DNA from: a virus | Taxonomy: Duplodnaviria > Caudoviricetes | Strand: one strand, 5' to 3' | IMG/VR virus record: IMGVR_UViG_3300043676_000044 | Coordinates: 1-60,690 of that record | DNA length: 60,690 nucleotides | Shown here: positions 42,126-59,711 of the stretch, one piece after another | Position numbering within the stretch: position 1 is the first letter of the stretch | Layout: every line of letters begins with the position of its first letter | Notes under the pieces: generated by a model | Database searches by the model: none | Told to the model about the DNA's origin: nothing | Seen by the model: the letters and a program-made list of their open reading frames with translations, nothing else | Made by a program: the position numbers and the translations under genes

Positions 42126-44011
42126 TGATTGACCTTATCCTCGGCCAGCTTGAGGCTGGAACCCCAGCCGCCCTCACTCGCGAGCGGCAGGCCCGGCGCC
42201 CAGACCGGCGCGCGGGCGAACTCGGCCTCCAGCAGCGCATCCATCGCTTCGGCCTCATCCTCGGGCACGCAGTAATCCAGGCTGTCATGCGTCGTCAGGA
42301 ATGGCACGGAGTCACTCGACGCCTTGACCCTGGTCATGATCTCAGTGATCACGATCCGTGCCAGGGCCTGGCAAAGATTTTCCGTGATCTTCCCCCCGAA
42401 CAGTTTGCGCGGCGTATCGTATGGGTCGTCATAGACCATCTCGGACCTGGTGTTTGTGATCACCTGCTTCCTGAGATTACGGTAGTTCAGGGGCAACCCA
42501 TTGGGAAGCCAAATCGCCTCGGGGGCGGTCTTTATGCAGTCCTTTATATAGGGTGTCGAAACGGAAGATCCAACCATCAGGCTGCGCGCGAGCTGGTCGC
42601 ACTTGTTCCAGAGCTGCGGGATCTCAGGGTAGCGGGCGCGGTAGAGGCTCACCAACGCCGCGGCTTCTTCGTCCGATACCTCGACGCTTATGCCGCCCTG
42701 GCCAATGAACAGGGTATGGCGCATGCGCTCGGCACCCATGCCATAGCCGCTACCAAGTATTACGGTCTTCCCTACGTGTCTGGCGAGCTTGTCGGCCCGG
42801 GTGATCGTCCGCGCATAAGCCTCGCTGGCAAACTCGGAGTAGATGTCCCGCCCCTGCCGGAACGCTTCCAGCAGGCTCTCGCAATCCGCTAGCCAGGCGT
42901 TCACCCGCGCCTCGATCTGCGAGCTGTCGCGGTGGACGATGCGGTAGCCCTCGGGCGCCTTGATCGCCTCGCGTATCCGCGATCCGCGCTTGAAGTTCTG
43001 CCAGTTAAACCCGTCGCTCCCCGAGAACCTGCCGGTATGCGCGCCGAAATACCGTAGTGGGACCGGCGCCCAGCCCTGACCAAGGTTGTCGGGCCAGTGC
43101 TTCAATGATAGCGCAAGCATTTTCTCAGTTCGGGTCTCCTCCTGCGTAGACTTGGACCCGACGCGCACCGCCAGCAAAGTTTGCACCTCCTCGGGCTGCT
43201 CCGGATCGGAGCAAAGCTCCTTGAAGGCGCGGTCGTTCTTCGCCAGCGCCCAGGTCTCCTCGCCGGTCGCCGGCGATACCTTGCGCGGCACCTCGACGCC
43301 GTGGCGCTCGAGCAGGGCGGCGAATTGCGGGTTGGAGCTGAACACGCAGGGATCGAGGTGGCCGACGCGCGCCAGCATCTGCGCCTTGCGCGCCCGGACC
43401 TCGGCGAGATGCTCGGCCAGCACATGCGGATCGAGCATGACTTGGGGGGCGCAGAACATGCGCACCGTCATGTCGATCACCGGCAGCTCGCTGGTGGGGA
43501 ACACCGTCATGAACCGGTCGAATATCATCCGGCACAGTTCATTGTCGTGCCTGCAGTAACTACGGTAAGCCATCAGTGCCTCGGGGTTAGCCTGGAAGTC
43601 GGCCAGCCCCCAGCCCTTGGCGCTGTGGACCTCCTGTCCCTTGGGGGGCAGGCCCAGATGCTCGGCGACCTTGGCCAGGCTCGACGAGCCTAGCTTGTGG
43701 TGGGTGAGCGCCCGCGCCATCGAGAACGTGTCGAGATACAAAGCTGGCTCGATGCCCAGGCGCCACGACATGATCCCCGCATCGAACACGCAGTTATGGG
43801 AGAGCATCGCGCTGTTGTCCCAGTCGATCCGCGACAGGCGCTCCCTGACGGCCTCGATGCCGACGAAGGTTTCGCTCGGCTGATGGTCCTCCTTCACCGC
43901 GGCCATGATCAGCTGGAAGCGCGGATCGAGGATGTAGTCGATCGTACTCATTCGGTTGAGCGTGTAGTCGCTGGCGTAGTAGCTCTCGAAGTCAATCGCA
44001 ACGATGCCCAT
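42122..44011 (-). CDS. Family A DNA polymerase with 3'-5' exonuclease
   Basis: IDFESY, HNCVFD, HTGRFSG, DSSQIEAR, GKTVILGSGYGMG, TTHDS. Confidence 0.95.
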   Translation of the reverse strand: MGIVAIDFESYYASDYTLNRMSTIDYILDPRFQLIMAAVKEDHQPSETFVGIEAVRERLSRIDWDNSAMLSHNCVFDAGIMSWRLGIEPALYLDTFSMARALTHHKLGSSSLAKVAEHLGLPPKGQEVHSAKGWGLADFQANPEALMAYRSYCRHDNELCRMIFDRFMTVFPTSELPVIDMTVRMFCAPQVMLDPHVLAEHLAEVRARKAQMLARVGHLDPCVFSSNPQFAALLERHGVEVPRKVSPATGEETWALAKNDRAFKELCSDPEQPEEVQTLLAVRVGSKSTQEETRTEKMLALSLKHWPDNLGQGWAPVPLRYFGAHTGRFSGSDGFNWQNFKRGSRIREAIKAPEGYRIVHRDSSQIEARVNAWLADCESLLEAFRQGRDIYSEFASEAYARTITRADKLARHVGKTVILGSGYGMGAERMRHTLFIGQGGISVEVSDEEAAALVSLYRARYPEIPQLWNKCDQLARSLMVGSSVSTPYIKDCIKTAPEAIWLPNGLPLNYRNLRKQVITNTRSEMVYDDPYDTPRKLFGGKITENLCQALARIVITEIMTRVKASSDSVPFLTTHDSLDYCVPEDEAEAMDALLEAEFARAPVWAPGLPLASEGGWGSSLKLAEDKVNQ

Positions 44012-44023
44012 GCTGATATTCTC

Positions 44024-44293
44024 TCAGCCCTCGACTATTTTAGGCGTGTAGCCGTAGTGCTGGCGGAACTCGGTCTGCACAATTTTGGCGATATCAGCGC
44101 CCGGCTTGACGGGGATAGTCCCGCCCCGTGTGCGTAAGCCGACAGCCACTTCCTCGTATTGCGATCCCTGGCCATTCCCCAGGTTCCACATCACGCACAG
44201 CAGACCATGGTGCGCGGTGTATTCAGTGCTGGTGTCGCCTTCCACGAGAGTCGCGTAGGCGCCACGCTCAGTTCGGACGATATGTGCGGTCAT
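44024..44293 (-). CDS. Hypothetical protein
   Basis: Tightly packed - strand ORF. Confidence 0.55.
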   Translation of the reverse strand: MTAHIVRTERGAYATLVEGDTSTEYTAHHGLLCVMWNLGNGQGSQYEEVAVGLRTRGGTIPVKPGADIAKIVQTEFRQHYGYTPKIVEG

Positions 44294-44296
44294 ATC

Positions 44297-44572
44297 TCAG
44301 TTCTCCTCTTCGCCGACCCGCGCGACGGTCAGCCACGTATTATGGCCGGTAACGTAACGGTCAGCGCGAACCGGGACGCAGATGAAGGCCTCGTAGGTGT
44401 GCGTCTTTTTGCTATGGCTCCAGCTGTCGAGCCGCAGCGTGCGGCAAAAACCGCGCTTGCCGAATTTTCTGTGCGCTTCGCGCTCGGCGAAAATCTCGGC
44501 GGCGGCGCCAGCGTTCTCCGCTTGCACGGCGCGGAAACCGTCGCAGCGGAAAGTATAGAGGTGGGCTGACAT
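44297..44572 (-). CDS. Hypothetical protein
   Basis: AGGAG RBS; motif variant upstream near 44596. Confidence 0.6.
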   Translation of the reverse strand: MSAHLYTFRCDGFRAVQAENAGAAAEIFAEREAHRKFGKRGFCRTLRLDSWSHSKKTHTYEAFICVPVRADRYVTGHNTWLTVARVGEEEN

Positions 44573-44605
44573 AGTCCTAACTCCTCTGTGCTCGACTACA
44601 GTAAT

Positions 44606-45382
44606 TTACGCGGGTTTCCACTCGCCGTCGAGGAACTGCCAGGCCAGGACCTGCGCGAATTGCCGGCGGTGGTGCCCGTTCGTCTCGGGGGTCAGCGAGC
44701 AGTCGGCCAGGATCTCCTCGGCCGCGGCTCGGTATTTCCTGACCAGCTCGACCGTCTCCACGCGGGGGGCATAGGGCGCGGTGCGGTTGCTGACCTCGTT
44801 GATGCGATGCTTCCACTTCTCCTCGGTGACGAAGGTCGCGAGCTGCGGCCACAGCATGTGCAGCGTGGTAGTGTCGGTCAGATTGTACATGACCGACTCG
44901 GTGAACCAGCTCGCGAGGTGCTCCCGCCGCCGGGCATGCACGATCGGCGCGAGCCACGACAGTAGTTGGTTCCATTTCTCCTCGGTGATGTTATGGATCA
45001 GCGCGTCAACATAGTCGGATTTGTTGAGCCTCGCTATGTTGTTGCCGGCAGGGGGCGACGTACGGCTGGTATACTTCGGGAAGAACATCTTCACGTTGTT
45101 CACGAACAGCACGACATCGCGCGGCAGGGGCTTCCACCCCTCGGGTACATGGTCGGCGGACAGGCGGATGACGATGGACCCGGTCATCTGAATGCCGCTG
45201 ATGTCCCTGGCGCGCAGCGCGTTGCAATGCCCGATCATGTCGGGGTCGAGCACCAGGAGCTGCACGTCGTCGGCATCGAGCGGGAACTGCGCCTCGAACT
45301 GGCGCGCCGGGCGCCTCAGTGTGGCTCTGATGCTCTCTAGGATATCGGTGGTGATGGAAGATGGGATTTTCTGGTTAGCCAT
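44606..45382 (-). CDS. Hypothetical protein
   Basis: Operon-consistent 258-aa ORF. Confidence 0.7.
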   Translation of the reverse strand: MANQKIPSSITTDILESIRATLRRPARQFEAQFPLDADDVQLLVLDPDMIGHCNALRARDISGIQMTGSIVIRLSADHVPEGWKPLPRDVVLFVNNVKMFFPKYTSRTSPPAGNNIARLNKSDYVDALIHNITEEKWNQLLSWLAPIVHARRREHLASWFTESVMYNLTDTTTLHMLWPQLATFVTEEKWKHRINEVSNRTAPYAPRVETVELVRKYRAAAEEILADCSLTPETNGHHRRQFAQVLAWQFLDGEWKPA

Positions 45383-45950
45383 TAGTCTTCACCTTCTTCG
45401 GTTTGCGCACCGGATGCAGCAGGATTTTGCGGTGCTGCGGCATGTTGAGGATGTTCACCAGCGTCTCGAGCTGCAGCCGCGAGTTGCCTCTGATCGAGAT
45501 CTTGTCGCTGTCCTCATAGTATTGCAGGGTCTTGCCGATGGGGCCGTGCATCGTTGTCTTCTCGGCGACAATCTCGATGGCCACCATGATCGGCCGCAAC
45601 TTCGCCAGCGGCTCGATGACGCAGGAGAAATACAGTGGATCGGTCAGCGCCTCGGCATACTCGTCCGGAGGGACGCTCGATTTGCCGTGTGCCACGTGGA
45701 TGATTAGCGGGGTGTGGCCCCGCCTATGTCCCCACTCCCTCGTCATCTCCCTAAACCCGCCGGTCATGAAGCTGAACAGGAATTGCGGGCGGTCGCTGTA
45801 GCGGTTCTCGGCGTTGACGCTGATGCAGAACCCGCGCTCGGTGATGCAGTCGGCCATGTGCTGCAGTATCGCCACCTGCTGGCGCATGTCCTCGGCGAAG
45901 CTGGTGGTTGGGATTACGGTAGTCGACGACAAAGGTGTCGCGACGGTCAT
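45375..45950 (-). CDS. Hypothetical protein
   Basis: Coupled ORF with GGAGG RBS. Confidence 0.65.
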   Translation of the reverse strand: MTVATPLSSTTVIPTTSFAEDMRQQVAILQHMADCITERGFCISVNAENRYSDRPQFLFSFMTGGFREMTREWGHRRGHTPLIIHVAHGKSSVPPDEYAEALTDPLYFSCVIEPLAKLRPIMVAIEIVAEKTTMHGPIGKTLQYYEDSDKISIRGNSRLQLETLVNILNMPQHRKILLHPVRKPKKVKTNG

Positions 45951-46195
45951 GGTGCCTCCAATGCGATGCGCGCTAATGTGGTGTCATCGAGAAACTCGTC
46001 GTAGGGAACGACGATCTCGCTGCCATCGACGAACTCGATGGTCATCTCGTCGGATAGGGTGCATCGCAGCACTAGGCCGATCTTCTCGGTCAGGCGCTGA
46101 GGGAGCCTGTCACATAGCAAGCCCCTGTAGCTTTCCATCTGCCCGATCCCGTTGGGGCCAGCGATAATGCCGGATTTGCTGGGGAACTTAGTCAC
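45947..46195 (-). CDS. Hypothetical protein, paralogue A (ends LARIALEAP)
   Basis: Aligns with 46192-46443. Confidence 0.7.
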   Translation of the reverse strand: MTKFPSKSGIIAGPNGIGQMESYRGLLCDRLPQRLTEKIGLVLRCTLSDEMTIEFVDGSEIVVPYDEFLDDTTLARIALEAP

Positions 46196-46443
46196 GGTGC
46201 CTCCAATGCTATGCGAGCTAGCATGTAATCACTGAGGAAATCCTCCTCGGCGAACTCGATGCTGGTGTCGTCGGTAAACTCGACAGTGATGATGCCCGAC
46301 GTTCTGATGGTCCAAGCCCGGTTTATTCGGCGCATCAGGCGCTCGGGCAGGCGCTCGCGAAGAAGTTGCGTGTAGGAAGTTATCTGCCCGGTGCGCCAGG
46401 ACCCATCGACAGGTGGAAGATACAGCGTCCGCCGCTTGGTCAT
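46192..46443 (-). CDS. Hypothetical protein, paralogue B (ends LARIALEAP)
   Basis: ATG at 46443 overlaps the vWA gene stop. Confidence 0.7.
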   Translation of the reverse strand: MTKRRTLYLPPVDGSWRTGQITSYTQLLRERLPERLMRRINRAWTIRTSGIITVEFTDDTSIEFAEEDFLSDYMLARIALEAP

Positions 46444-47732
46444 GTCTTGATGTGCACGGTCTCGCCGAACGGGGCCGTGCCTTTCTCGATGCTGGCCCAG
46501 ACCACCGGATACAACGGTGCCTTGTCGGGCATTTGGCCTTGGAGATCCGTGAGGTAGATCAGCGCGTCGGGCTTGATGCCTTCCTTCTCCAGGTACTCGA
46601 ACGGTGGGACGAAGCTGGTGCCGCCGCCGCCCCTGACGCCACGCTTGCGTGCCACTTCCAGCTCGTCGAGTGAGTTGGCCTCGGCGACACGCCGGATCTG
46701 TGCGTCGCACTCGATCAGGATCACGGTCTTGGGTTTCACGTCCGCGAGTATCCCGCGCATCTCCCCGAAGAACGCACCCAGCGCCTTGGGGTCGGCGTAG
46801 ATCGACCCCGACGTGTCCACCACGACCGCCACCGTGTCCGCGCCATGCCCGGTGCGGCCCGGCATCATGATGATCGGATTGAGTATCAGCTTGCGCCGGT
46901 CCGGACGGTTCCACGTCTCCTTGCGCCGCCCGATCATGCCGGTGATGGTCAGGCGGATCTTGTCGCGCCACTGAATCTGCGGCTCCAGGATATCCTCGAC
47001 CATCCTGGCGATGCGCGTCGGCAGCTTGCCCATCGCCTTGGCCGCGGCTGCCGCCGCCGCGATGGCCTCCTTGTACTCGGTGTCGCTCGGCAGATCGACC
47101 TTGCCCGTGACCGGGTCCACCGGCGGGTCCAGCAGCTCGTCGAACGCGCCACCCTGTTTCGCCGCCTGGGCATCGCCCTTGGCCCCCTTGGGCGCCTTGT
47201 CTGAACTACGGTAGGTGCTGGGGTTACCCTGGCCTCCGTTGTTGGGCTGGGGCGGCGGGTCCTGCCATTTGCGCTCGTAGACCTTCTCCCATACCTCGTC
47301 CGCGCTCACGTCCGCGGCATAGAGCCACTCGGGGTTCATCTGTCCGACGCCGTCCTCGATGAGCCCGGCATTGATCACGTAGTCGGCGCAGACATTGGCG
47401 AACTGATGGACGAACGGCTTGCCCATCACCGTGCCCTGCTGCTCGTAATGCTTGCCGCGCGCGGGGTGGCGCTCGACGGCGTGGACGACCTCATGGGCAT
47501 AGACGAAGATCGCCTCGCCGGGTTTGAGCGTGTCGATATAGTCGGGGTTGATGAAGATATGCCTGCCGTCCGTCGCGGCGGTGGGGACATCCCTGGTAAA
47601 GACCTCCCGACACTGGGAGTAGAAAAAATGGCTGTAGAAATGGCATGCCGTCATCATCCCGACGCGGGCGATCTCCAGCTTCCTGACCTGGTCGGGCGTG
47701 GGCACGATCTCGGTAAACTTATGGGTCTGCAT
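46440..47732 (-). CDS. Metallopeptidase-like (DUF2201-type) + vWA domain protein
   Basis: TAATDG, AHEVVH, ADYVIN; DTSGS MIDAS, GGGGTSF, YLTD. Confidence 0.9.
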   Translation of the reverse strand: MQTHKFTEIVPTPDQVRKLEIARVGMMTACHFYSHFFYSQCREVFTRDVPTAATDGRHIFINPDYIDTLKPGEAIFVYAHEVVHAVERHPARGKHYEQQGTVMGKPFVHQFANVCADYVINAGLIEDGVGQMNPEWLYAADVSADEVWEKVYERKWQDPPPQPNNGGQGNPSTYRSSDKAPKGAKGDAQAAKQGGAFDELLDPPVDPVTGKVDLPSDTEYKEAIAAAAAAAKAMGKLPTRIARMVEDILEPQIQWRDKIRLTITGMIGRRKETWNRPDRRKLILNPIIMMPGRTGHGADTVAVVVDTSGSIYADPKALGAFFGEMRGILADVKPKTVILIECDAQIRRVAEANSLDELEVARKRGVRGGGGTSFVPPFEYLEKEGIKPDALIYLTDLQGQMPDKAPLYPVVWASIEKGTAPFGETVHIKT

Positions 47733-47745
47733 TACGGTAGTTCTC

Positions 47746-48642
47746 CTATTGGCTGTCCAGACGATCCACGATCGCCTGGGCCTGCTTCTGCACGATCTCG
47801 CGGGCGACGTGGCTTACGCGCAATCCCTCGGCGCTGCTGCCACTGATCATTCGGTCGATCATCGCGGTGATCTCGATCACCTCCTGCTCACCGTTGATGT
47901 TCCAGGCGGGAAGCAACGTGACCAGCTCGCGCACCGCCTCGACCGTCGAGGCACGGAACGTCGCGTCCTCCCCCGACAGGCGCTCGGCGAGCTTGCCCAC
48001 GCGCTTGCGGATCTGGTCCATCATCGCCTTGCGGGCGCCATCGACCATGATCTGTTGTTTCGCCTCAAGGAACTTGGACAGCGCCGTCAGCGTGGTATCC
48101 GGCAGCCCCTGGAAATCCTGCCCGGCAGGCATGGGGACGAAATCGTAGTTGATGTGGAACTGCGCCCGCACCTCCGCCTCGGTCGGGTATGTCGCATCGG
48201 CCAGCGCCGCCAGGTTGGCCTTCGCCCGCACTATCGCATCGGGGTAGTCCGCGATGAACGCATCGAGCGCCTCCATCGCGATCCGCTTGCGCTTGCCCAT
48301 CTCCTCGGCGTACTTGTCGAACAGCTCCGTGGGCAGCAGCCGTGGCCCCCTGAGGCGCTCGGCGTGGGGGTCGGCCACCCATGGCAGGGTCAGGCCGTAA
48401 TGGGTCGTACGGACCGCTGTGAAGGCCGCCTGGGCCTCTTTCAGCTTGCCGTCGGCCCCAGCCAGCATGTTCTTGATCGCCCGCCCCACGTTGCCCACGG
48501 CCCCGGCGTCGGCCTTGGCCTTGTCCATGATCTTGCGATCGGACTTCTCGGCCGACCACACCCCGATGGTCACGTCGGCCAGCAACGCGGTCTTGCGCAG
48601 CGCGTTGCCGATATCGGCATGCCCGATCTGCATCCCGTCCAT
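47746..48642 (-). CDS. Helical protein of the AAA/vWA cluster (DUF3150-like)
   Basis: WSAEKSD..HYGLTLPW..RLLP..YPT..F pattern typical next to phage MoxR/vWA pairs. Confidence 0.65.
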   Translation of the reverse strand: MDGMQIGHADIGNALRKTALLADVTIGVWSAEKSDRKIMDKAKADAGAVGNVGRAIKNMLAGADGKLKEAQAAFTAVRTTHYGLTLPWVADPHAERLRGPRLLPTELFDKYAEEMGKRKRIAMEALDAFIADYPDAIVRAKANLAALADATYPTEAEVRAQFHINYDFVPMPAGQDFQGLPDTTLTALSKFLEAKQQIMVDGARKAMMDQIRKRVGKLAERLSGEDATFRASTVEAVRELVTLLPAWNINGEQEVIEITAMIDRMISGSSAEGLRVSHVAREIVQKQAQAIVDRLDSQ

Positions 48643-48875
48643 CAATGTCCTCCAAATACGGTAGTTGGTGTCAATGCCAAGTATACCAGCAGCGTGCCCA
48701 CCAGGGCAGCCACGGCCAGGGTGGCGTGGATCGCGAGCGCCTGCCGGCGCATGGTTCGCTCGAATGCCTCGGCGGACCAGGGACGCGGGGGGCTGGGGAT
48801 ATGCAGTTCCAGCTGGCGCGGGTCGTTGTCGTTCACGGGCAAGGGCTCCAGTTCCTCGATCAGGTGCAATCTCAT
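48642..48875 (-). CDS. Small protein with C-terminal TM helix
   Basis: ALAIHATLAVAALVGTLLVYLAL. Confidence 0.55.
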   Translation of the reverse strand: MRLHLIEELEPLPVNDNDPRQLELHIPSPPRPWSAEAFERTMRRQALAIHATLAVAALVGTLLVYLALTPTTVFGGH

Positions 48876-49306
48876 GGCTCGGGGTTCCCCAGGATATCCA
48901 GGTAGGTGCTCTCGTGCGGCTCGATCTCCCGGTTGCATGACGGGCACCGGTCATTGCACGCGCAGCTCCACTGATCGGTCCATGTCTCGTGGCAGGCTTG
49001 GCATTCATAGTGGTTCACGATGCGGCACGGCTCGTCGTCGGTATCGACCGGCCCTTCCCACAGGTCGCGCGACTTCACGAACATCCACATCATCACCCAG
49101 GTCCCGTCGTCGGTCTCGCTGACTACGGTAGGGGAGTCGATCTCCATGTCGTTGTCGAACGCGATGGTGTTGCGGGCGAACTCGATATACGGGTTGTCCG
49201 CCTCGCTCGCCTGGAACGCGCGGACGCAATCCGAGAAGGTGACGTGGTTCTCATCGAACAGCTTCTTGATGCGCGCCCGCCGGTCCTCGACCTCTAGCAT
49301 TCCCAT
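48872..49306 (-). CDS. Hypothetical protein with C-terminal Zn ribbon
   Basis: NHYECQACHETWTDQWSCACNDRCPSC; start ATG within a motif variant. Confidence 0.7.
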   Translation of the reverse strand: MGMLEVEDRRARIKKLFDENHVTFSDCVRAFQASEADNPYIEFARNTIAFDNDMEIDSPTVVSETDDGTWVMMWMFVKSRDLWEGPVDTDDEPCRIVNHYECQACHETWTDQWSCACNDRCPSCNREIEPHESTYLDILGNPEP

Positions 49307-49485
49307 TATGGTAGTTCCTCTACTGACTCGATGCAGATCTCTTGCAAGGTAATTCCCTCCGGAGGGCAAGGGCGCTCCTCGACCGCGCACCTGGCGATCT
49401 CCTCCGCTTCCTCGCGGCTCGCGGCCTCGATGGTGAAGTCGAACCCGTCGGTGTAGTAGACGCTGCCCACGATGTTGAATTTCAT
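49306..49485 (-). CDS. 59-aa acidic protein (possibly DpnD/PcfM-like), ends ELP
   Basis: Manual translation MKFNIVGSVYY..IEAASREEAEEIA..EELP; AGGAG RBS. Confidence 0.6.
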   Translation of the reverse strand: MKFNIVGSVYYTDGFDFTIEAASREEAEEIARCAVEERPCPPEGITLQEICIESVEELP

Positions 49486-49520
49486 GTTTCATCTCCTGTG
49501 ATTACGGTAGTTGTCCTGCC

Positions 49521-50693
49521 CTATGCCCGCACCGCGAGCAGCAGGTCCTTGTGTTCCCGCAGCCAGTCGGCGTAGTCGGCGGTCATCGACAGCGCATGGC
49601 TGGCCTCGGGGCGCCCTTTCATCGCGCGCACCGCGAGCACCTGCATCTCGGTCTTCAACCTGGTCAGGTATTTCATCACCGGCTCGGCATTCTTGTCGTC
49701 GATATTCCCCGCGAGCATGAACCCCACCACCATCTGCGCATCCTTGTTCGGCGGCAGCTTGGCCTTGGATGGGTCGCGCATCACGCTCTCGATGGTGGGG
49801 ATCTCGTCGGAGAACTTGAGGTGGACAAAATACTGGCTCGCCGCCGCCTGCCCGACCCAGCCCGCGGCACACTCCTTGGCGATGGTGTCCATCGGCATCT
49901 GGTCGCGGGATACCTCCTCGGGTGACCTTAGCGAGCGCAGATCCGCATCCATCCGGCACAGCGATCGCGGGGTGCAGAACGGATCGGTCCCATCGGGCAC
50001 GCCGTCGGTGAACACGATCTGCGGGTATTGCTGCGCGAAGCTCAGCGTCATGTGGTGCGGGCGCAGCGCCTTGGGCTGGCTCGACGCCCACCCGATGAAC
50101 GCCGGCATGTTGGCGTCGATATGCACCTCCATGCGGCGGTTGGTGAGGAACATCAGCGGGCGCATCACACCCGACCGGTCCTTCATTCGGTTGGACGCGG
50201 CCACCACGCGCCAGCCCATCGGGAGTGCCACGTTGCCCACCTGCCCGTTGAGCAGCAGCTCCGCGCCCGCTTTGCGCACGTCATCGTCTGCCTGGCCAAA
50301 TTCGTCCAGGAACAGGACGCCGACGCGGGGGACCTGGCCTTTCCACGTCCCCTCACGGTGCACCGTGCCGTCGGGCTCGATGACTACCGTATTTGAGATG
50401 GTCGGATACCACGGCGGCGTGCTGAACACGGTGTCCAGCGCGTTGTCCGCGGCGCCCTTGATGGGGATCATGAACCCGCGCACGTCCACGCTCGAGATGG
50501 TCGCGAACATGAACACATGCAGCCCGACCGGCTCGCCCAGCTGACGCGCCGTCTCGGCCACGCACTGGACCACCGCCGACGATTTGCCGATGCCAGGGGG
50601 CGAGATCATCTCGATCGCGCTGGCGCGCGTGCCTCCGTGCAACGCACCCATGTGGGTGCGAACGATAACCTGTTTCGCTTCGTTGATGTCCAT
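49521..50693 (-). CDS. MoxR-like AAA+ ATPase
   Basis: SPPGIGKS, LFLDEF, VVAASNR, TPRS. Confidence 0.88.
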   Translation of the reverse strand: MDINEAKQVIVRTHMGALHGGTRASAIEMISPPGIGKSSAVVQCVAETARQLGEPVGLHVFMFATISSVDVRGFMIPIKGAADNALDTVFSTPPWYPTISNTVVIEPDGTVHREGTWKGQVPRVGVLFLDEFGQADDDVRKAGAELLLNGQVGNVALPMGWRVVAASNRMKDRSGVMRPLMFLTNRRMEVHIDANMPAFIGWASSQPKALRPHHMTLSFAQQYPQIVFTDGVPDGTDPFCTPRSLCRMDADLRSLRSPEEVSRDQMPMDTIAKECAAGWVGQAAASQYFVHLKFSDEIPTIESVMRDPSKAKLPPNKDAQMVVGFMLAGNIDDKNAEPVMKYLTRLKTEMQVLAVRAMKGRPEASHALSMTADYADWLREHKDLLLAVRA

Positions 50694-50695
50694 GA

Positions 50696-51034
50696 TTACG
50701 GTAGTTCCTTGTTGGTGTGATAGATACGTGCCTCAAGCTCGGCGATCATCGCGTCCAGCGCGAGCTTGGGGACGTCGAACAGGGTCCAGTGCCTGGCCGG
50801 CACGATGCAGGGCGCGTCCAAGTGGTCGGTCTCGATGTGCCAGCACTCGATCGGTTTCTCAATCGCGGCCAGCTGCAACGCCGCCTCGGTATACTCAAGA
50901 TCGAACACGAAGTAGCGCAGCCATACGTCGAACGCGGCGCCGGCATCGTCGGCGTGGATTATGCAGTCCTCGCGATTGCCCTCGTTGACCTCCTTGGCGA
51001 CCTCATACTCGATGCCCACCTGATACAGGGCCAT
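50696..51034 (-). CDS. Hypothetical protein (ends ELP)
   Basis: Bounded by motif copies at both ends. Confidence 0.7.
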   Translation of the reverse strand: MALYQVGIEYEVAKEVNEGNREDCIIHADDAGAAFDVWLRYFVFDLEYTEAALQLAAIEKPIECWHIETDHLDAPCIVPARHWTLFDVPKLALDAMIAELEARIYHTNKELP

Positions 51035-51324
51035 TACGGTAGTTCCTTTATCGGGCGTTGCTCGCTGAGACCCGCGACGATCACCACCAGCTCGTTCATG
51101 ACGCTCTCGAGGCGGGCGACGCGAGCGCGGTGCTGGTTGCCCGCGATGGCCTGGGCATTATCCCCCTGCATGTAGTAGTCGCGACCGTGGGGCGCGGTGT
51201 TCGTCTGCAGGTATTCGTGCGCGTCGCTGACCATTTGCAGCGCCATGATGTAGCTATCATACAGGCTGTCGTAGCTGGTGCCGTTGAGATGCACGGTGGG
51301 GATCGCGATGGTGACAAGGGTCAT
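51034..51324 (-). CDS. Hypothetical protein (ends ELP)
   Basis: PTVHLNGT..APHGRDYY pattern; bounded by motif copies. Confidence 0.72.
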   Translation of the reverse strand: MTLVTIAIPTVHLNGTSYDSLYDSYIMALQMVSDAHEYLQTNTAPHGRDYYMQGDNAQAIAGNQHRARVARLESVMNELVVIVAGLSEQRPIKELP

Positions 51325-51352
51325 TTCGGTTGTCCTCGATTACGGTAATTGA

Positions 51353-51811
51353 TCAGGGGTAGAGATGCAGCTGGTTCGTGCTGTTGTTGATCGACCACCC
51401 GCAGACATGGCGCAGGAACCCCTGCCCGAGCAGGCCGGTCTCGGTCTGGTTTATCGACATCTCGATATTCTCGACCGTGATGCCCTTGAGCGTGAGCGCA
51501 GGAAGTATGTAGGTCTGCTCGCGGCTGACGGCGCCGTTGGCGAGGTGGAAGTTGACCATGCGGTAGGGTTTCAGGCTGCCGTCGCGGAGCCAGGCCAGGC
51601 CGAGCGAGCGCGGCAGGGACACGTCCCCCGCGCCGCTGTCGAGCACGAAGGTATGCCCGCCTGGCACGTCGCGAAAATAGAACTTGATATGCGGCGTGGA
51701 GTAGGTCGCGAAGTCCAGGTCGTAGCTGACCGGGGTGGGGGAGCACGGGAACGCGGGGGACGCGATCGCGACCGTCATTAGCGCACACGCTCCCAAAAGA
51801 AGCCGTTTCAT
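51353..51811 (-). CDS. Secreted retropepsin-like aspartic protease
   Basis: Signal peptide; FVLDSGA; LANG flap; LLGQGFL. Confidence 0.82.
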   Translation of the reverse strand: MKRLLLGACALMTVAIASPAFPCSPTPVSYDLDFATYSTPHIKFYFRDVPGGHTFVLDSGAGDVSLPRSLGLAWLRDGSLKPYRMVNFHLANGAVSREQTYILPALTLKGITVENIEMSINQTETGLLGQGFLRHVCGWSINNSTNQLHLYP

Positions 51812-51849
51812 CGGTATATCCCTATTACGGTAGTTGATAAAGAGTAAAG

Positions 51850-51951
51850 TCAGGAGTCTGCGTCTAAGACTATCAGGAAAGACAATATTCCTATGGTGAC
51901 CAGGCCGCCGCCGAGCATGGCGAACACGATCACGGGGAGCAGGTCGAGCAT
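51850..51951 (-). CDS. 33-aa membrane peptide
   Basis: AAGGA RBS; MLDLLPVIVFAMLGGGLVTIGILSFLIVLDADS. Confidence 0.5.
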   Translation of the reverse strand: MLDLLPVIVFAMLGGGLVTIGILSFLIVLDADS

Positions 51952-52171
51952 GGGTGGGTTCCTTGGGTTGGTGGGGGCGCGCCGACGACAAGGTGTCGCG
52001 GCGGGGCGGCGCATCATTCGGTAAAACCGCCGTGGATGCCCGCACAGGCGCCCTTATGGGCTGGGTGGGGGCGAGGGCGCGGCGGGGACGTTATCGGCCT
52101 GTACGGGCAGATATGGGGCTCTAGGGGACGCGGGGGGCTAGATCCTCCGATTACGGTAGTTGATGGGTAGC

Positions 52172-52384
52172 TTAGACCTGGTGCTCTGCGAGTTCGCGAT
52201 TAAACTCGACCAGCAGCCTTCCGTCGCGATCGTCCAGGCTGGCACACACCACGATCGGGTCGTCGACGCACGCATTATAGAAGCGCGCCGCGTCGAGGTA
52301 ATTGTCATAGAGGAACGTGTGATAATCCAGCGCGCCATGCTCGACCGCGCCGATGGTCACGACGAAGGGATTTTGCAGGTTCAT
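52172..52384 (-). CDS. Hypothetical protein
   Basis: GGAG RBS next to a motif copy; flanked by two copies. Confidence 0.55.
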   Translation of the reverse strand: MNLQNPFVVTIGAVEHGALDYHTFLYDNYLDAARFYNACVDDPIVVCASLDDRDGRLLVEFNRELAEHQV

Positions 52385-52431
52385 GGTGGATAACTCCAAT
52401 TACGGTAGTGCATGAAGGGTCTGGATAGTAT

Positions 52432-52841
52432 GGAAGTATGTATCACGCATCCGTGAGGATACTTCCATTCTCGTGAGACGAAAATGAGACTTTGGCGGAT
52501 TTCCAGGCGTTTTTCGCGATACTTCCATACTTCTATTACGCATTCCGTGTAACGGAAGTATTCAAACACCAAAAAACCCAGGAGTAGCTAGGGCTACCGC
52601 GATGAACTTCTGCAACGACGTAAATACACCCCAAAATGGAGGGGTCCGGTTTCACGACCTATCGTGACAAACTCAGTCTCAGATCTCATCCTGCGAGACA
52701 GCCTCGCTAGTGGCTCCTGTTTTAAAACATATAGAAGTATGGAAGTATGGAAGTATGAAAGAAAACTATTGAAAATCTGCCATAAACTGCGTCGAGATAC
52801 TTCCAACGGTGCGGCCGGCGAACACGGCGCTACGGAAGTAT
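52432..52841. repeat. Cluster of (G/A)GAAGTAT 8-mers in an AT-rich intergenic region (iteron/origin-like)
   Basis: Ten copies in both orientations: 52432, 52459, 52519, 52527, 52554, 52733, 52741, 52749, 52797, 52834. Confidence 0.8.
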
Positions 52842-53010
52842 GACCCCAAAATTGGTCGCTACGATAGTGACTGGGGGTTTTTGGCCCGGAAAGCTTCCAC
52901 CACTATATAAATTGGTCGAGTAGCGGCGGCGCAGGCGGCGCATCATTCGGTTTAATATAGTAGTGGGAGCTTACGCCCCCACCCTACCTTGTAACCACTA
53001 TAGTGATTGG

Positions 53011-53940
53011 TTAGGCAGCCTGGCCCAATGTAGTGGTGGGCGTGGTGGACTGGAACACGCGGCCGTTGAAGGGGGCGAACACGTCAACCACACCCGAAGC
53101 TGGCTCAATTACGGTAGTGGATGGGATAGGCTTGGGTCCGTCGAGCACCTCGGTTGCGCTCGCGGTCGGCTCGCGCGCCTCTACGGCAGCGATCTCACGC
53201 ATGTCCTGCGCGGTGACCGGGCGCGTGACCGGCCCGGCCTCGCCCAGCATCGCGGCGCGCGCCGCCTCCAAGGTTTCGACCTTGACCTTGGACAGGGTAT
53301 CAAACGCAGCCTTCACGTCCTGCTCGGGGAAGTTGAGCGCGATGGTGGAAAGCTCATCCATCATGGCCTTGATCCGCTTGGCGGCCTTGTCGGCCTTGAT
53401 ATCCGGGTCGCACTCGCGGGCATAGGCGGTGATCAGGTCGGGCGCGTCGAGCAATCTGCCGCGCGTCGGCAGGGCCTGCGTCGCGGACATCACGACATGG
53501 TAACGGCGCTTCCATGCCTTGCGTGCGGGCATGTCGGCGTCCTTGCCATTGAGCGCCTTGGCCAGGTCTTCGTCGGCCCACACCGCAAGTGCTGCGTCCA
53601 TGATGGATGGGAAAGCCTCGCGCGTGCCGGGTTGCATGACCACGCGCAGCTCGTTGGCGAAAGTCTTGACGCTGGCGGGAAGTTTCGCGCCGTTGTTCGC
53701 CTCGGCGACAAGTGCCGCGCCCTTGTCTACCTGTTGCGCGGTCCAGGCGTTCTGCGTGGACAGCTCGGCCAGGGTGCGCAGCGTGCCCTCGCGCGTGACC
53801 AGCTCGTTGTCGCGCTTGCCCTGCACGATATCAGCTTCTTTCTTGATATCGTCCAGTTCCATGCTGTGGCGCGACAGCGCGCCCTGAATGGCGTTCTTGA
53901 TGGTCTCCGCGATGGTCGCGGTGTCGAGGAGCATGTTCAT
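53011..53940 (-). CDS. Early hypothetical helical protein
   Basis: 309-aa ORF, AGGA RBS beside a motif copy. Confidence 0.75.
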   Translation of the reverse strand: MNMLLDTATIAETIKNAIQGALSRHSMELDDIKKEADIVQGKRDNELVTREGTLRTLAELSTQNAWTAQQVDKGAALVAEANNGAKLPASVKTFANELRVVMQPGTREAFPSIMDAALAVWADEDLAKALNGKDADMPARKAWKRRYHVVMSATQALPTRGRLLDAPDLITAYARECDPDIKADKAAKRIKAMMDELSTIALNFPEQDVKAAFDTLSKVKVETLEAARAAMLGEAGPVTRPVTAQDMREIAAVEAREPTASATEVLDGPKPIPSTTVIEPASGVVDVFAPFNGRVFQSTTPTTTLGQAA

Positions 53941-53977
53941 AGTGTGTGGGTTCCTGATTACGGTAGTTGATGGGGGG

Positions 53978-54064
53978 TTAGGCGCGGCAGACACAGAAAG
54001 AGAGTTGCAAGCGCCACACTCGCAGAAATCTAAGCCCGCCGACCTTGCGATAACGTAGGGTCAT
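53978..54064 (-). CDS. 28-aa basic peptide
   Basis: TAATG coupling; MTLRYRKVGGLRFLRVWRLQLSFCVCRA. Confidence 0.45.
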   Translation of the reverse strand: MTLRYRKVGGLRFLRVWRLQLSFCVCRA

Positions 54065-54291
54065 TAGCGGGCACCCATGGCGTAGGCGCGGATGGCTTTG
54101 CTGCCGTGATACATCGCGCCCATGGCGTGGCTCGGCAGGTTTCCGGCGATGCAGCCGCCCTTGATCCTGCGGGCGCCGTTGGCGACGCGGGCCGGGCAAC
54201 GCTTGATTACGATGTTCGCGGGGGGCGCAACCACGTCGCGCTTGCCCAGCGTGGGGGCGAGTAGGAACTTGGCAGAGATCGTGGCTCGCAT
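54064..54291 (-). CDS. First early gene, small basic protein
   Basis: GGAG RBS; directly downstream of the hammerhead and a motif copy. Confidence 0.6.
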   Translation of the reverse strand: MRATISAKFLLAPTLGKRDVVAPPANIVIKRCPARVANGARRIKGGCIAGNLPSHAMGAMYHGSKAIRAYAMGAR

Positions 54292-54315
54292 GGGTCACTC
54301 CGATTACGGTAGTTG

Positions 54316-54366
54316 AAGGTTTCGGGTTCGCACCCATCGTCAGCATGGCGAGCAGCCATGGACCTT
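54316..54366 (-). ncRNA. Type III hammerhead ribozyme
   Basis: AAGG-UC / CAUGGC-UGCUC-GCCAUG / CUGACGA-U / GGGU-GCGA-ACCC / GAAA-CCUU: all core nucleotides and three perfectly paired stems. Confidence 0.88.
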
Positions 54367-54745
54367 GCGTGGCGCGGCCTTCCGCGCAACCTACTGCCTC
54401 CGCATGGTGGGTCCATGCATCTACGGGGTCGAGTGTCCGCACCTGCTGCGCTTGTTAGACGCATGGATGCTTAGGCGCCCCTGCCGGCATCATGTGTGCC
54501 GCGTTGCTGCGTCGGGGTGGATCTCATAAGGGGGTGGAAGGAACAACTACCGGTAGTCAGGGGGGCTGGGGGGCCGGGGGGAGTATTGGACAGGGGTGGG
54601 GGGGTGCCTAGGCCGCGGTTAGGTAAGTCACTCACACGACCAGCACTTTTTGAATACTATGTCACCGCCACTACGTTAGTGACTGGGAATGACCACTACA
54701 TTAGTTTTTCTATCTCCACGCCCCCACCCCGCCCAGCAGTATCTC

Positions 54746-54802
54746 TTGCAGACTCGGGGGCACGGCCTTATATAACAATCATGTTTACGGTAGTTATCCA
54801 CA
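54746..54802 (+). promoter_or_regulatory. Sigma70-like promoter, motif copy and one DnaA-box consensus upstream of the HTH gene
   Basis: TTGCAG-N17-TATATA; TTTACGGTAGTT 54784-54795; TTATCCACA 54794-54802; second -35 TTGACG at 54818. Confidence 0.55.
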
Positions 54803-54873
54803 AGCAGTGCAACTAGATTGACGCACGCGGCTTTAGGCGTGTTCTATTCACGAGCTACTAGAAGGGGGTCCAC

Positions 54874-55320
54874 ATGGCGCAAAAGAGTACGCCCAGTCCA
54901 TCCACCCGGTCGCGCAGCCGCAAGGCCCCGCCGCCGGCCAACACCAACTACAATAGCCTGGCTAAGCGCGACAAGGAGCCGTTGCCTGAGATCGACGAGG
55001 ATCTGGCTGAGCGCCTGGTCGAGCTGCTCGCCGCGATCACCGAGACCACGCGCCCGGCGACCAAGAAGGCGCGCCTGCTCGCGTTCATCATCGAGATGGA
55101 CCGGCTCAAGCAGCTGTTCCCTACCCACCAGGTGGTCGCTGACCATATCGGCTGCTCGGTCGACAATATCCGCACCGCGCTGAACGACAGCATCAAGCGC
55201 AAGCTGGTGACCCAGGAGCTGGTGTTTGTTCCCGGTAACATCGCGCGTCGCGAGAGCACCACGCGGCGGCACCGCTACGCACCAACCAGGAGATTAGCGC
55301 CCGTTACTAGTCTGCTGTAA
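54874..55320 (+). CDS. Winged-HTH DNA-binding protein (repressor candidate)
   Basis: FPTHQVVADHIGCSVDNIRTALNDSIKRKLV. Confidence 0.7.
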   Translation: MAQKSTPSPSTRSRSRKAPPPANTNYNSLAKRDKEPLPEIDEDLAERLVELLAAITETTRPATKKARLLAFIIEMDRLKQLFPTHQVVADHIGCSVDNIRTALNDSIKRKLVTQELVFVPGNIARRESTTRRHRYAPTRRLAPVTSLL

Positions 55321-55504
55321 TACTGATAAACGCCCAAAATAAAACTAAATAAAACGGCTTTAAGGCGTGATAAACCGTACCCGACGGGCAGTCGTTAAAA
55401 ATGCGTTATTCTGGCTCGCTCCATTAATCTCCATCTAGACATTTGTCAGGAAGTATGGGGCGAGTCATTTTTACTGTGGCCAGGATGTCACACCGGGTTT
55501 TCGT

Positions 55505-55540
55505 TTGACACCCCCTGACTCGGGATTTAGATTACGGTTT
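55505..55540 (+). promoter_or_regulatory. Sigma70 promoter with a motif variant over the -10 box
   Basis: TTGACA-N17-TAGATT; ATTACGGTTT overlaps the -10. Confidence 0.65.
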
Positions 55541-55571
55541 AATCATGGGGCTTCCACGAAGGAATACCGTA

Positions 55572-55910
55572 ATGCGCCAGCGGCCGGTCCAAACCTCCTC
55601 CCCTCCCGCGAGTCGGGTCCAGTCTGGAAATGCAGCAGACGCGCAACCGCTACTTCACATGGCCGTGCGCTCGCCGCCGCGGGCGGTGTCGCAGATCGGG
55701 CCGCCGGTCCCCCGCGTCCGCCGTGCCTCCGAGATGAAACTGGCGATAGATCGCGCGCTTGAGGCGGTCGGACGGCTGTCGGACCAGCTGGGCGATGGCG
55801 GGGGCGGCATGAGCGATCAGGAGCTGGTTCAGGTCGCGCAGGGGTTCGTGCGCGCCGTGGCGACCGCCGGGACCCGCCTCGCCTGTATCATAACGCCAAT
55901 AAAGCTATAA
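55572..55910 (+). CDS. Hypothetical protein
   Basis: AAGGA-ATACCGTA-ATG start after a strong promoter. Confidence 0.5.
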   Translation: MRQRPVQTSSPPASRVQSGNAADAQPLLHMAVRSPPRAVSQIGPPVPRVRRASEMKLAIDRALEAVGRLSDQLGDGGGGMSDQELVQVAQGFVRAVATAGTRLACIITPIKL

Positions 55911-56019
55911 CTCTCCGTCGCGTACGGTAAGTAAGCTTTCAAGCTTGCCAGCTGTGGCGGAAGTGTATTAGATCGCCCCACCCCGTCGTGCATACGCGCA
56001 TGGCGTGGAGAGGGGAACC

Positions 56020-56637
56020 ATGAAGGTTGTCGTGCTGGCGTCGCAGAAGGGCGGCGCGGGGAAGACCACGCTGACCGCGCATCTCGCGGTCGAGGCGGCG
56101 CGGCGGGGTTCCCGGGTCGTGGTGGTCGACCTCGATCCGCAGATGGGGCTCATGGAATGGTGGAACGCGCGCGCGGCTGACACACCGGTGGCTGCCCAGT
56201 TCGCCGCCGCCGACCTCGCCGCCGGCATCGCCTCGCTGCGGGAGAGCTTCGATTTCATGTTCATCGACACGCCGCCGGCACTCGGAGACAATATCCGCCT
56301 CGCCATGGCCCATGCCGACCTCGTGGTAATTCCCGTGCAGCCCTCGCCCAACGACCTGCGCGCCGTCGGCGCCACTATCCGCATGGCCCGCGAGGTGCGT
56401 AAGCGGTTGCTGTTCGTGCGGAACAGATCGAACCCCCGGCACGTCCTTGCCAGGGAGACAGCAAGATTGCTGGCGGCGCACGGGCCTTCCGCTCATGGTG
56501 ATATCGGGGACCGCACCGACTTCAAGGCGGCGATGGCTGAAGGGCTGACCGCGTCCGAGATCAATCCATGGTCGCGGTCGGCGGTCGAGGTCGCCGCCCT
56601 GTGGGATGTCGTGGCAGAACAGCTAGGAGGGGTTTGA
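56020..56637 (+). CDS. parA: Short ParA (type Ib/ParF-like) partition ATPase
   Basis: SQKGGAGKTT, DLDPQ, FIDTPP, ADLVVIPVQPSPNDL. Confidence 0.93.
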   Translation: MKVVVLASQKGGAGKTTLTAHLAVEAARRGSRVVVVDLDPQMGLMEWWNARAADTPVAAQFAAADLAAGIASLRESFDFMFIDTPPALGDNIRLAMAHADLVVIPVQPSPNDLRAVGATIRMAREVRKRLLFVRNRSNPRHVLARETARLLAAHGPSAHGDIGDRTDFKAAMAEGLTASEINPWSRSAVEVAALWDVVAEQLGGV

Positions 56638-56867
56638 TGGCCAAGACGCCGATAAAATTATCAGATGGCCTGGTGAATGCCGGTAAGCGCCCCGCGCTCG
56701 GGCCAACTACCGTAGGTCGGGTCTATCCTATGATGCTCTCGGTCCGCGTCGATCCGGCGTTGCTCGACGAGGTGAAGGACCTCGCGCATGCGCGGCGGCT
56801 GAAAATCCAGGATGCGGTGGACGAGATGATGCGCAGCTGGGTGCGGACCAACGGCTCACGGCGCTAA
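56637..56867 (+). CDS. Ribbon-helix-helix partition partner (ParG-like)
   Basis: Coupled to parA; LSVRVDPALLDEVKDLA..IQDAVDEMMRSW. Confidence 0.75.
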   Translation: MAKTPIKLSDGLVNAGKRPALGPTTVGRVYPMMLSVRVDPALLDEVKDLAHARRLKIQDAVDEMMRSWVRTNGSRR

Positions 56868-56891
56868 ATGCAAGCAAGTTTGCCGGTAAGA

Positions 56892-59698: not shown

Positions 59699-59711
59699 GG
59701 CGCAGTATACA

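Follow-up and report, generated by a model that had tools for sequence, protein, structure and literature searches.

A dispersed near-palindromic site at gene junctions and within genes of an uncultivated 60-kb podophage and its relatives

Introduction

Cluster A mycobacteriophages (L5, with its gp71, and relatives) carry 20 to 30 oriented repressor sites with a lineage-specific consensus, of which, according to the cited passages, some act as operators and most as roadblocks (PMC6550527; PMC9283540). Here we describe a comparable layout in an uncultivated tailed soil phage (Duplodnaviria; Caudoviricetes), the IMG/VR virus record IMGVR_UViG_3300043676_000044, which was analysed over its whole length of 60,690 bp and is hereafter called the window. 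The element under study is a two-armed site with the core ACTAC-N-GTAGT, found at gene junctions, within genes and in a non-coding control region. The feature is real, strongly non-random and family-wide. For its function we favour, with about evenly divided confidence, a reading of the dispersed sites as operator and roadblock sites of a phage-encoded DNA-binding regulator, in the manner of the Cluster A stoperators.

Other repeat systems offer further points of comparison, each given here as the cited passages present it. Cluster O mycobacteriophages have more than 30 17-bp dyad repeats (7-3-7), for which a dimeric binder is predicted and the function is left unexplained (PMC4351075). The SAS/ESAS of Cluster K, a 13-bp oriented repeat that precedes the starts of non-structural genes, is likewise presented as still unexplained (PMC3203893), and the PeSL cassettes of T4-type phages combine promoter and terminator stem-loop repeats that flank non-essential genes (PMC2839356). 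Our literature search returned no paper on the repeats of the present family and none under the name of its closest cultured member; as far as this search shows, a layout known from some mycobacteriophages is new for this uncultivated phage family. To our knowledge, Cluster A mycobacteriophages are so far the one group in which regulator sites spread in this way over a whole genome have been worked out.

Results

Enrichment and symmetry of the site

The sequence-only reading from which this analysis started had described AACTACCGTAAT as a motif built into the junctions of ribosome-binding site, stop codon and start codon of the early genes. That string is the commonest local form of the two-armed site. 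AACTACCRTA occurs in 22 exact copies, compared with a mean of 0.03 and a maximum of 1 in 100 dinucleotide shuffles (0/100 reach 22), and the core ACTAC-C-GTAAT differs by one change from the palindrome ACTAC-N-GTAGT. When ACTAC-N(0-2)-GTAGT is sought with at most 1 mismatch, 41 copies are found, where 50 first-order Markov shuffles yield 0.86 on average and never more than 3; with eight close variants, the 41 make up the 49 copies considered below. The aligned copies yield the extended consensus tCAACTACCGTAATCG, and the perfect dyad ACTACCGGTAGT is present at two places in the window, 27289 and 54546. Site density amounts to 19 per 7.1 kb in the early region (47.7-54.8 kb), 11 per 15 kb in the replication genes and 14 per 31 kb in the late genes.

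All the junctions that had been listed were found again on reading the minus strand, although the copies at 51341 and 52401 proved to be variants (ATTACCGTAAT and a C for the first A, respectively), as did both of the copies cited for the same layout on the plus strand, at 14313 and 55572. The view of an early-gene junction motif was thus right about the junctions and too narrow in scope, the motif also being present in late and replication genes and in the non-coding control region. Additions to the earlier description are the dyad symmetry, the intragenic location of about half of the copies, the cluster in the divergent region and an orphan copy at 52150-52160.

Placement of the copies in the early region and control region

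Between 47720 and 54320, 11 of the 13 genes have a copy that ends from 4 nt inside to 40 nt before the start codon; the genes without one are those starting at 51951 and 48875. Over the whole genome, 21 of the 49 copies end at -4 to +40 nt relative to a start codon, a zone that makes up 5% of the genome (P about 6e-15, an optimistic value because some of the start codons were curated while the motif contexts were being viewed, which makes the count partly circular). The other 28 copies lie away from starts, many of them in long late genes.

Followed leftward along the minus strand from the first gene of the operon, the start-adjacent copies show a recurrent layout with small variations. The copies at 54303-54313 and 53957-53967 are succeeded by GGAG and ATG 54291 (the gene that opens the leftward operon) and by AGGA and ATG 53940, respectively; CACTACCGTAAT at 52399-52409, with C for the first A, by GGAG and ATG 52384; and the perfect palindrome ATTACCGTAAT at 51339-51349 by GAGG and ATG 51324. 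Between the last two, a copy at 51824-51834 precedes a Shine-Dalgarno-like sequence and ATG 51811 of the gene for a 152-amino-acid (aa) aspartyl-protease-like protein. At 51033-51043 the copy forms the ELP-stop of a 96-aa open reading frame (ORF), with AAGG upstream, and its TAATG overlaps the start at 51034; at 50695-50705 it forms the ELP-stop of a 112-aa ORF and lies between AAGG and the ATPase start codon at 50693, so that the junction reads AAGG, motif, ATC, ATG. A copy at 49501-49511, 12 nt after the ATPase stop, is followed by AGGAG and ATG 49485, and ACTACCATAAT at 49305-49315 constitutes the ELP-stop of a 59-aa ORF, its TAATG overlapping the start of a 144-aa ORF at 49306, where the junction is GAGG, AACTACCATA and ATG. 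Further on, the copy at 48655-48665, which ends in TATT and is read P-T-T-V-F in the last codons of a 77-aa ORF, is followed by GGAGG and ATG 48642 of a 298-aa gene, and the copy at 47731-47741 stands between AGGAG and ATG 47732, the start of a DUF2201 metallopeptidase/VWA gene. Copies within genes of this region comprise 53108-53118 in a 309-aa ORF (read T-T-V-I), a weaker CCTAC-C-GTAGT at 49122-49132 in the 144-aa ORF (read P-T-V-V) and, on the plus strand, a weak antisense copy at 50383-50393 in the ATPase gene.

The divergent non-coding region holds a cluster of four sites, at 54546-54557 (ACTACCGGTAGT, the perfect dyad), 54670-54680, 54695-54705 and 54784-54794, and just downstream of the last of these a TG-N-TATATA element resembling an extended -10 can be recognised by eye on the minus strand. 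A promoter and terminator scan called neither kind of signal at the site copies.

The claim that three unrelated proteins end in ELP holds: the ORFs at 49309-49485, 50699-51034 and 51037-51324 end in ...EELP, ...KELP and ...KELP, and in BLASTP two of the pairs gave no match at E<=10 and the third a match at E=0.40. Copies inside genes mostly read Thr-Thr-Val, in codons that are rare in this genome (ACT for 61 of 757 Thr and GTA for 43 of 783 Val in 17 long genes), which argues that it is the nucleotides and not the peptide that are kept. The copies may occupy the junctions of ribosome-binding site, stop and start because a genome this densely packed leaves non-coding space nowhere else; where even that is lacking, the site would be written in codons, as GAA-CTA-CCG-TAA (ELP-stop) or as ACT-ACC-GTA (T-T-V).

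Related genomes carry their own dyads at conserved places

We compared the window with six related genomes (G001 to G006) and the Rhizobium phage RHph_TM3_14A, eight genomes altogether. Each has a dyad of its own above chance, at least 6-fold in seven of them and weakly in G004. The form CCACTACC(G)GTAGTGG occurs 30 times in G001 (3.1 by chance), TTTACTACCGGTAG... 14 times in G002 (0.9), ACTAC[A/T]GTAGT 27 times in G005 (2.3) and aATCACTACNGTAGGG 23 times in G006 (1.1), while G003 has 30 copies of TACTCC(C)GGAGTA (4.7), G004 has 13 ACTCC/ACTAC hybrids (4.8) and RHph_TM3_14A has 55 copies of GTTACC-N-GGTAAC (0.1). Perfect palindromes are among these forms: ACTACCGGTAGT in G001, ACTAC[A/T]GTAGT in G005, TACTCCGGAGTA in G003 and GTTACCT-N3-4-AGGTAAC in the Rhizobium phage. 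Two more distant capsid relatives (L251 and L254) have other palindromes.

The sequence shifts from lineage to lineage and the places recur. A copy precedes the ATPase gene in the window, G001, G004, G005 and G006, and a copy trails the capsid gene in the window, G001, G006 and the Rhizobium phage. Under an automated rule, start association exceeds that of random positions in 6 of the 8 genomes; it is absent from G002 (0/14) and G005 (3/27, compared with 8% of random positions). The accessory genes between the conserved genes vary in every relative, and the flanking sites stay put. In a 2.3-Mb Acetobacteraceae metagenome-assembled genome (MAG), all 22 matches to ACTACNGTA fall on a 59-kb phage contig, so the signal is private to the phage, provided that the binning is right.

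A winged-helix protein as candidate binder, and the case for a DNA site

Beside the site cluster, on the plus strand at 54874-55317, lies the gene for a 148-aa winged-helix protein. A full HMMER scan finds 81 homologues at E<=0.001, compared with only 2 from a word-based protein search. The AF2 model of the protein (pLDDT 88, pTM 0.76) has only winged-helix proteins as structural neighbours, most of them DNA-binding: the MarR family, ArsR/SmtB, Fur, IscR, the DnaD N-domain, TFE and the T4 MotA N-domain. Neither Pfam nor PHROGs has a family for it, weak helix-turn-helix matches appear in 3 of 47 aligned members, and a search of cultured phages gave no match. Searching with a family profile recovers a member in each of the five genomes that share the ACTAC half-site (the window, G001, G002, G005 and G006). 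Among 83 capsid-centred loci of at least 8 kb, the family is present in 3 of the 6 that are densest in ACTAC dyads and in 0 of the 77 others, counts that are few and phylogenetically non-independent, most loci stopping short of the control region. Within the 1200 nt upstream of the winged-helix gene there are 5 copies in the window (0.81 expected), 4 in G006 (0.46), 3 in G002 (0.87) and 1 in G001.

The dyad, the perfect palindromes of the relatives, the copies in late genes and in the control region, the lack of RNA structure and the adjoining winged-helix gene argue for a site that is read as DNA; a regulator site of this type also accounts for the restriction of the motif to the phage, for its drift between lineages at fixed places and for its association with one protein family. 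If so, the 148-aa protein would be the most likely candidate for the regulator, the leftward early operon would have its operators in the divergent-region copies (54546-54794), and the copies at junctions and in long genes would serve as dispersed silencing or roadblock sites, probably during a prophage state. The earlier proposal of a roadblock or translational operator at each gene thereby fares well in its operator/roadblock part, which fits best, with the amendments that the site would be a DNA site and not an RNA signal and that it extends beyond the early genes.

Several observations weigh against this operator/roadblock reading. Orientation follows transcription in 33 copies and opposes it in 7 (40 determinable; P = 4e-5), and 36 of 44 aligned copies have C as the middle base of the sense strand; such orientation is required of an RNA signal but not of a symmetric dimer on DNA. 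The Shine-Dalgarno sequence is in several lineages formed by the right arm (GGAGT in G003 and G004, AAGG/GAGG in the Rhizobium phage and GTAGGG in G006), an arrangement equally expected of a translational operator. Only 6 to 7 bp separate the centres of the 5-bp arms, a tight fit for two helix-turn-helix heads if it is not the outer bases of the 15-18-bp site that are read. As to the candidate binder, its structural matches are weak and generic (best Foldseek E 0.017; VIA Z 6.3-8.1), G005 has 0 copies in the 1200 nt upstream of its winged-helix gene, and the profile finds no homologue in G003, G004 or the Rhizobium phage, each of which nevertheless has a motif, so other binders must be assumed there. 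The promoter scan called no sigma-70-like promoter in the divergent region for the leftward operon. To these points are added the sparse co-occurrence counts and the partial circularity of the placement count.

Part of the same evidence speaks for a signal at the RNA level, located by the ribosome-binding site and read by a phage or host protein or endoribonuclease that would set translation or processing gene by gene. The 21 of 49 copies at starts, the 11 of 13 genes between 47720 and 54320, the 33 to 7 orientation, the right arm that is often the Shine-Dalgarno sequence in relatives and the start association in 6 of the 8 genomes are all in keeping with it, and the Cluster K SAS, as presented in the cited passages, is likewise asymmetric, oriented and located 3-7 bp from starts (PMC3203893). 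Against it stand the 28 of 49 copies that are off starts, including four in the divergent control region, the 7 antisense copies and the absence of start association in G002 and G005. A reader of single-stranded RNA needs no symmetry, and the relatives' palindromes, with 0-1 central bases, cannot form RNA hairpins. In the window itself, the RNA around 8 copies folds no better than shuffles (z -0.72 to +1.04, 8/8 contexts), and on these contexts an RNA hairpin was rejected for the window. Pairing of the motif with 16S rRNA and likeness to RfaH ops or CsrA sites were also considered; no convincing match was apparent, although no search aimed at these was made. We regard an RNA-level signal as rather unlikely.

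Natural variants and cassette exchange

The sequence-only reading had also raised the possibility that the motif is a shared junction through which gene cassettes are inserted and deleted by recombination. Eighteen soil or sediment runs hold part of 47000-55000, none of them recorded as RNA, and contigs of four (X2-X5) were aligned to 44000-58000. The same variant strain, with the same base differences, is found in 4/4 runs, so these represent few events and not four. In this strain the 144-aa and 77-aa genes (48645-49306) are missing from their place: the joint leads from 49301, 4 nt past the copy at 49305-49315, through six other letters to 48643, which is the base before ATG 48642 and lies 12 nt past the copy at 48655-48665. 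Further joints connect 49523/5 to 48826, 48777 to 49485 and 49422 to 49347, the end at 49523/49525 being 12 nt from the copy at 49501-49511, which shows rearrangement or replacement of everything between the ATPase stop and the 298-aa gene. Run X3 has a second path that branches at 51367, 18 nt from the copy at 51339-51349, and begins with a motif copy of its own and GGAG. In runs X2 and X3, 56981-57710, part of a plasmid-like module, is replaced in the variant strain.

Runs X4 and X5 show a clean 245-nt deletion (45972-46216) that removes an 82-aa gene. It is bracketed by 26-nt direct repeats, 46217-46192 and 45973-45948, which lie at successive gene junctions and are not the ACTAC motif. Each 26-nt repeat contains an ORF end, GGAGG and the next start.

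The orphan copy mentioned above, at 52150-52160 on the minus strand, is followed by GGAGG with no ORF behind it; the sequence runs into a stop, and contigs of other runs end nearby (52017-52192). It may be the scar of a lost cassette.

For a motif that serves mainly as a recombination junction for the insertion, deletion and shuffling of cassettes, as PeSLs do in T4-type phages, these data offer variant ends at 4, 12, 12 and 18 nt from copies, the X3 path with its own copy and, over all ends, 5 of 16 break points within 25 nt of a copy (a zone covering 10%; P = 0.018). The accessory genes that differ among relatives between persisting flanking sites point the same way, and the PeSL description, as far as the cited passages go, provides a precedent (PMC2839356). 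Most ends nonetheless lie elsewhere. Within 25 nt of a start codon there are 7 of the 16, so that gene boundaries fit the data as well as the motif does, and the four runs stand for one variant strain. At the junction that lost two genes, the bases from the retained copy to the ATG differ from those of the window, which speaks against a simple copy-to-copy deletion. The 245-nt deletion used another, 26-nt repeat, and the one segment replaced between the Rhizobium phages TM3_14A and TM29 has its ends 61 and 95 nt from the nearest repeats. Eleven bp are short for homologous exchange. Recombination would also leave unexplained the intragenic copies, the dyad symmetry and the control-region cluster, and as the main role of the motif we consider it quite improbable. 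The proposed cassette junction thus has some support in the proximity of some ends to copies and is weakened by the equal fit of gene boundaries and by the off-motif deletion and Rhizobium segment. With the clean deletion running through a different repeat, cassette exchange looks like a side effect: under the operator/roadblock reading, short identical junctions would come to favour it as well.

Copies in the rest of the genome and the gene layout

The window is the whole virus record, with a G+C content of 64% and a CheckV completeness of 96%. Genes run rightward from 1159 to 32520 and leftward from 54291 to about 32540, leaving the divergent gap at 54292-54873. The large terminase gene extends across the record ends (1-585 and 59715-60690), which indicates circular permutation; an HNH endonuclease ORF (58976-59809) overlaps its 3' part. 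The rightward block encodes an SU10-type portal (1159-3432) and the major capsid protein (5264-6217; Pfam PF25209, N4-gp56-type according to the names in the source). PHROGs and Pfam further recognise tail fibres, a DarB-like protein of 2390 aa (25348-32517), a primase-helicase (DUF927; 33839-36784), an SNF2 helicase, a family A DNA polymerase (42125-44011), the DUF2201 metallopeptidase/VWA protein (46443-47732, minus strand), the ATPase (49524-50693, minus strand) and a small ParA (56005-56634, plus strand); the aspartyl-protease-like protein, a Pfam assignment, has a signal-peptide-like N-terminus. Rfam and a tRNA scan gave 0 matches each over the whole window.

In the late operon there are 14 copies on the plus strand between 3522 and 29440. 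Five stand before starts (6227, 12872, 14303, 21031, which is antisense, and 21068), and the others lie inside structural genes, at 3522, 4610, 7438 (antisense), 8765, 16535, 26950, 27289 (the perfect dyad), 27550 and 29430. The copy at 14303-14313 is the perfect palindrome ATTACCGTAAT, with AAGGG upstream, and runs into the TTG start at 14313. The replication part of the leftward operon has 11 minus-strand copies between 34327 and 47215, starting at 34327, 36063, 38386, 39956, 40288, 42476, 43048, 44595, 44956, 45913 and 47205, two of which precede starts: 40288 (ATG 40278) and 44595 (ATG 44572). Near the terminase and portal genes, between 607 and 1146, three copies are on the minus strand, at 607-617 (before ATG 585), 1054-1064 and 1136-1146 (before the portal start at 1159). 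The remaining plus-strand copies are a degenerate one, AATACCGTAATG, one base short, between AAGG and ATG 55572 (55560-55571); one within a 76-aa gene downstream of parA, read T-T-V-G (56706-56716); and a perfect palindrome ATTACCGTAAT, 24 nt before ATG 58099 (58064-58074).

The copy at 40288 is upstream of a 99-aa ORF (39982-40278, minus strand) that lies between the helicase gene and the next gene, in the position of a VRR-NUC gene in the Rhizobium phage; the ORF has no Pfam match, and GGAG and one copy of a second repeat, ATACTTCC, accompany the site there. This second repeat has 12 copies in the window compared with 0.74 expected, 8 of them, on both strands, in a 600-nt non-coding stretch of the early operon (52432-52841). 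The copies look like replication-origin iterons or a second set of operators. Other small palindromes, such as those near 53000 and 52870, adjoin this stretch.

A promoter element for a phage-specific transcription machinery, with one transcription start per gene, would be short, oriented, lineage-specific and placed ahead of many genes, as the present motif is and as the promoters of phage RNA polymerases and phage sigma factors are, and T7-like CACTATAG strings occur in the non-coding stretch near 53000. However, no RNA polymerase or sigma factor was recognised (65 ORFs searched against PHROGs and 64 against Pfam), nor was an integrase. Four junctions place the motif downstream of the Shine-Dalgarno sequence and ahead of the ATG, and a transcript that began at such a copy would have no ribosome site; many copies are intragenic, and the palindromes of the relatives would fire both ways. 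We think a promoter role highly improbable.

The plasmid-like module at 55545-57715 is found in this phage alone among those compared. In addition to ParA, it encodes an HTH_36 replication-initiator-like protein (56895-57401, minus strand), the 76-aa protein downstream of ParA (56637-56864, plus strand; CopG-like in Pfam at E = 0.06, below the curated cut-off) and a 105-aa ORF. The module with ParA, together with the failure to recognise an integrase, suggests that the phage is maintained as a plasmid prophage. It also bears on whether the sites serve some other DNA transaction: partition (as a centromere for a ParA partner), replication, compaction or packaging. The small ParA and the weakly CopG-like 76-aa protein, whose gene itself carries a copy, fit such a role, and plasmids and plasmid prophages are known to carry scattered palindromes that serve as centromere or regulator sites, as with RK2 KorB and N15. 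Yet the genes for ParA, the 76-aa protein and the HTH_36 protein have no tblastn match in G001, G003-G006 or the Rhizobium phage, genomes that each possess their own motif, and the start-adjacent, conserved early-operon placement is unexpected for centromeres. With the par module absent from 6 motif-bearing relatives, a ParG-type or type Ib partition centromere was rejected as the family-wide explanation, and the wider class of DNA transactions appears to us very doubtful.

Cultured and metagenomic relatives

Cultured relatives in the phage collection are limited to four near-identical Rhizobium phages, whose capsid protein is 62% identical to that of the window. Megablast of 47600-54500 against cultured phages gave no match, and the ATPase protein as query found no close relative in viral or metagenome contigs. 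In a 14-mer scan of viral contigs, the matches listed were single ones per contig and were taken for chance. The capsid protein has 7,732 matching proteins at E<=0.001 among 8,000 candidates scored, many of them on contigs of 57-67 kb, and one 58.8-kb contig carries relatives of both the capsid (90%) and the winged-helix protein (67%) (P0002, P0122). Contigs of 137-326 kb and a complete Salinisphaera chromosome contain some distant relatives, from which the family would appear to be at least partly temperate. The closest relative with the same half-site, G006 (capsid identity 77%), is a 59,358-bp contig (C1) assigned by binning to an Acetobacteraceae MAG, which merely hints at the group of the host.

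In the Rhizobium phage record MN988472.1 (L125), a gene annotated as 'putative integrase' (42239-45322) matches the DUF927 primase-helicase of the window (29% identity over 960 aa), and the 14-bp attL and attR features fall within genes. The integrase label looks doubtful.

Discussion

The sites described here resemble the Cluster A stoperators, as the cited passages on those phages present them, in several respects: tens of sites (12-14 bp in Cluster A; 41 copies here, 49 with variants) are spread genome-wide over early and late operons, they are oriented with transcription (33:7 in the window, a property that is meaningless for the palindromic relatives), some copies lie in the early control region, and the consensus varies by lineage, in Cluster A together with the regulator and here possibly so. 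The window has parA, as do some extrachromosomal Cluster A members. There are also differences. The Cluster A sites are presented there as lacking dyad symmetry and as bound by a two-domain monomer, whereas the site of the window is a near-palindrome that becomes perfect in relatives; our candidate is set apart by its winged-helix fold and by belonging to no Pfam or PHROGs family; and the present phage is a podovirus with an N4-type capsid protein and Proteobacteria-like hosts. Binding and roadblock action, established for Cluster A in those passages, are predictions for the window.

The Cluster O repeats are similar in numbering dozens of inverted repeats that are intergenic or near 5' ends as well as intragenic (about a third in Cluster O) and that have no promoter link, and differ in sequence and arm length and, in the passages cited, in having no orientation. 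Few or none of them are placed there at indel ends, whereas some ends here lie beside copies, and the Cluster O phages are characterised as not obviously temperate (PMC4351075). The cited passages on the Cluster K SAS place it, like our site, a few bases before starts, sometimes with the upstream stop codon inside it, and with ESAS arms that vary by subcluster. Unlike our site, the SAS contains the AGGAG Shine-Dalgarno core, which in the window stands beside the core; it is almost always 3-7 bp before starts, compared with 21 of 49 copies at starts here; and it is confined to the non-structural half, whereas the window has 14 copies in the late operon. With PeSLs, as far as the cited passages go, the present sites share repeated junctions around accessory genes in plastic regions with gene gain, loss and replacement; for PeSLs, the ends of such changes are placed in the repeats. 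PeSLs, each described as a strong sigma-70 promoter with a terminator stem-loop, are much longer than 11 bp, and no promoter or stem-loop was found around the copies of the window.

This Proteobacteria-type phage family brings together features that are useful for following up such repeats: metagenomic capsid relatives by the thousands, four cultured Rhizobium phages, a motif that shifts in sequence at fixed places, a named candidate binder, and natural strain variants with cassette differences beside the motif. Whether such repeats act on DNA or on RNA and whether they channel gene exchange thus become testable questions. If the operator/roadblock reading is true, the motif type could predict immunity groups among uncultivated phages.

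A broader proposition, which may hold but which we consider on the whole unlikely, is that a very large family of ~60-kb podophages, nearly all of it uncultivated and marked by the N4-type capsid protein, uses a fast-evolving, private palindrome code, with 20-55 copies per lineage at conserved junctions, a co-evolving regulator that silences or times the genome as a whole, and junctions that double as portable splice points. Were this the case, phages with a common code would exchange accessory genes through these junctions, and one short sequence would link regulation, superinfection immunity and gene flow.

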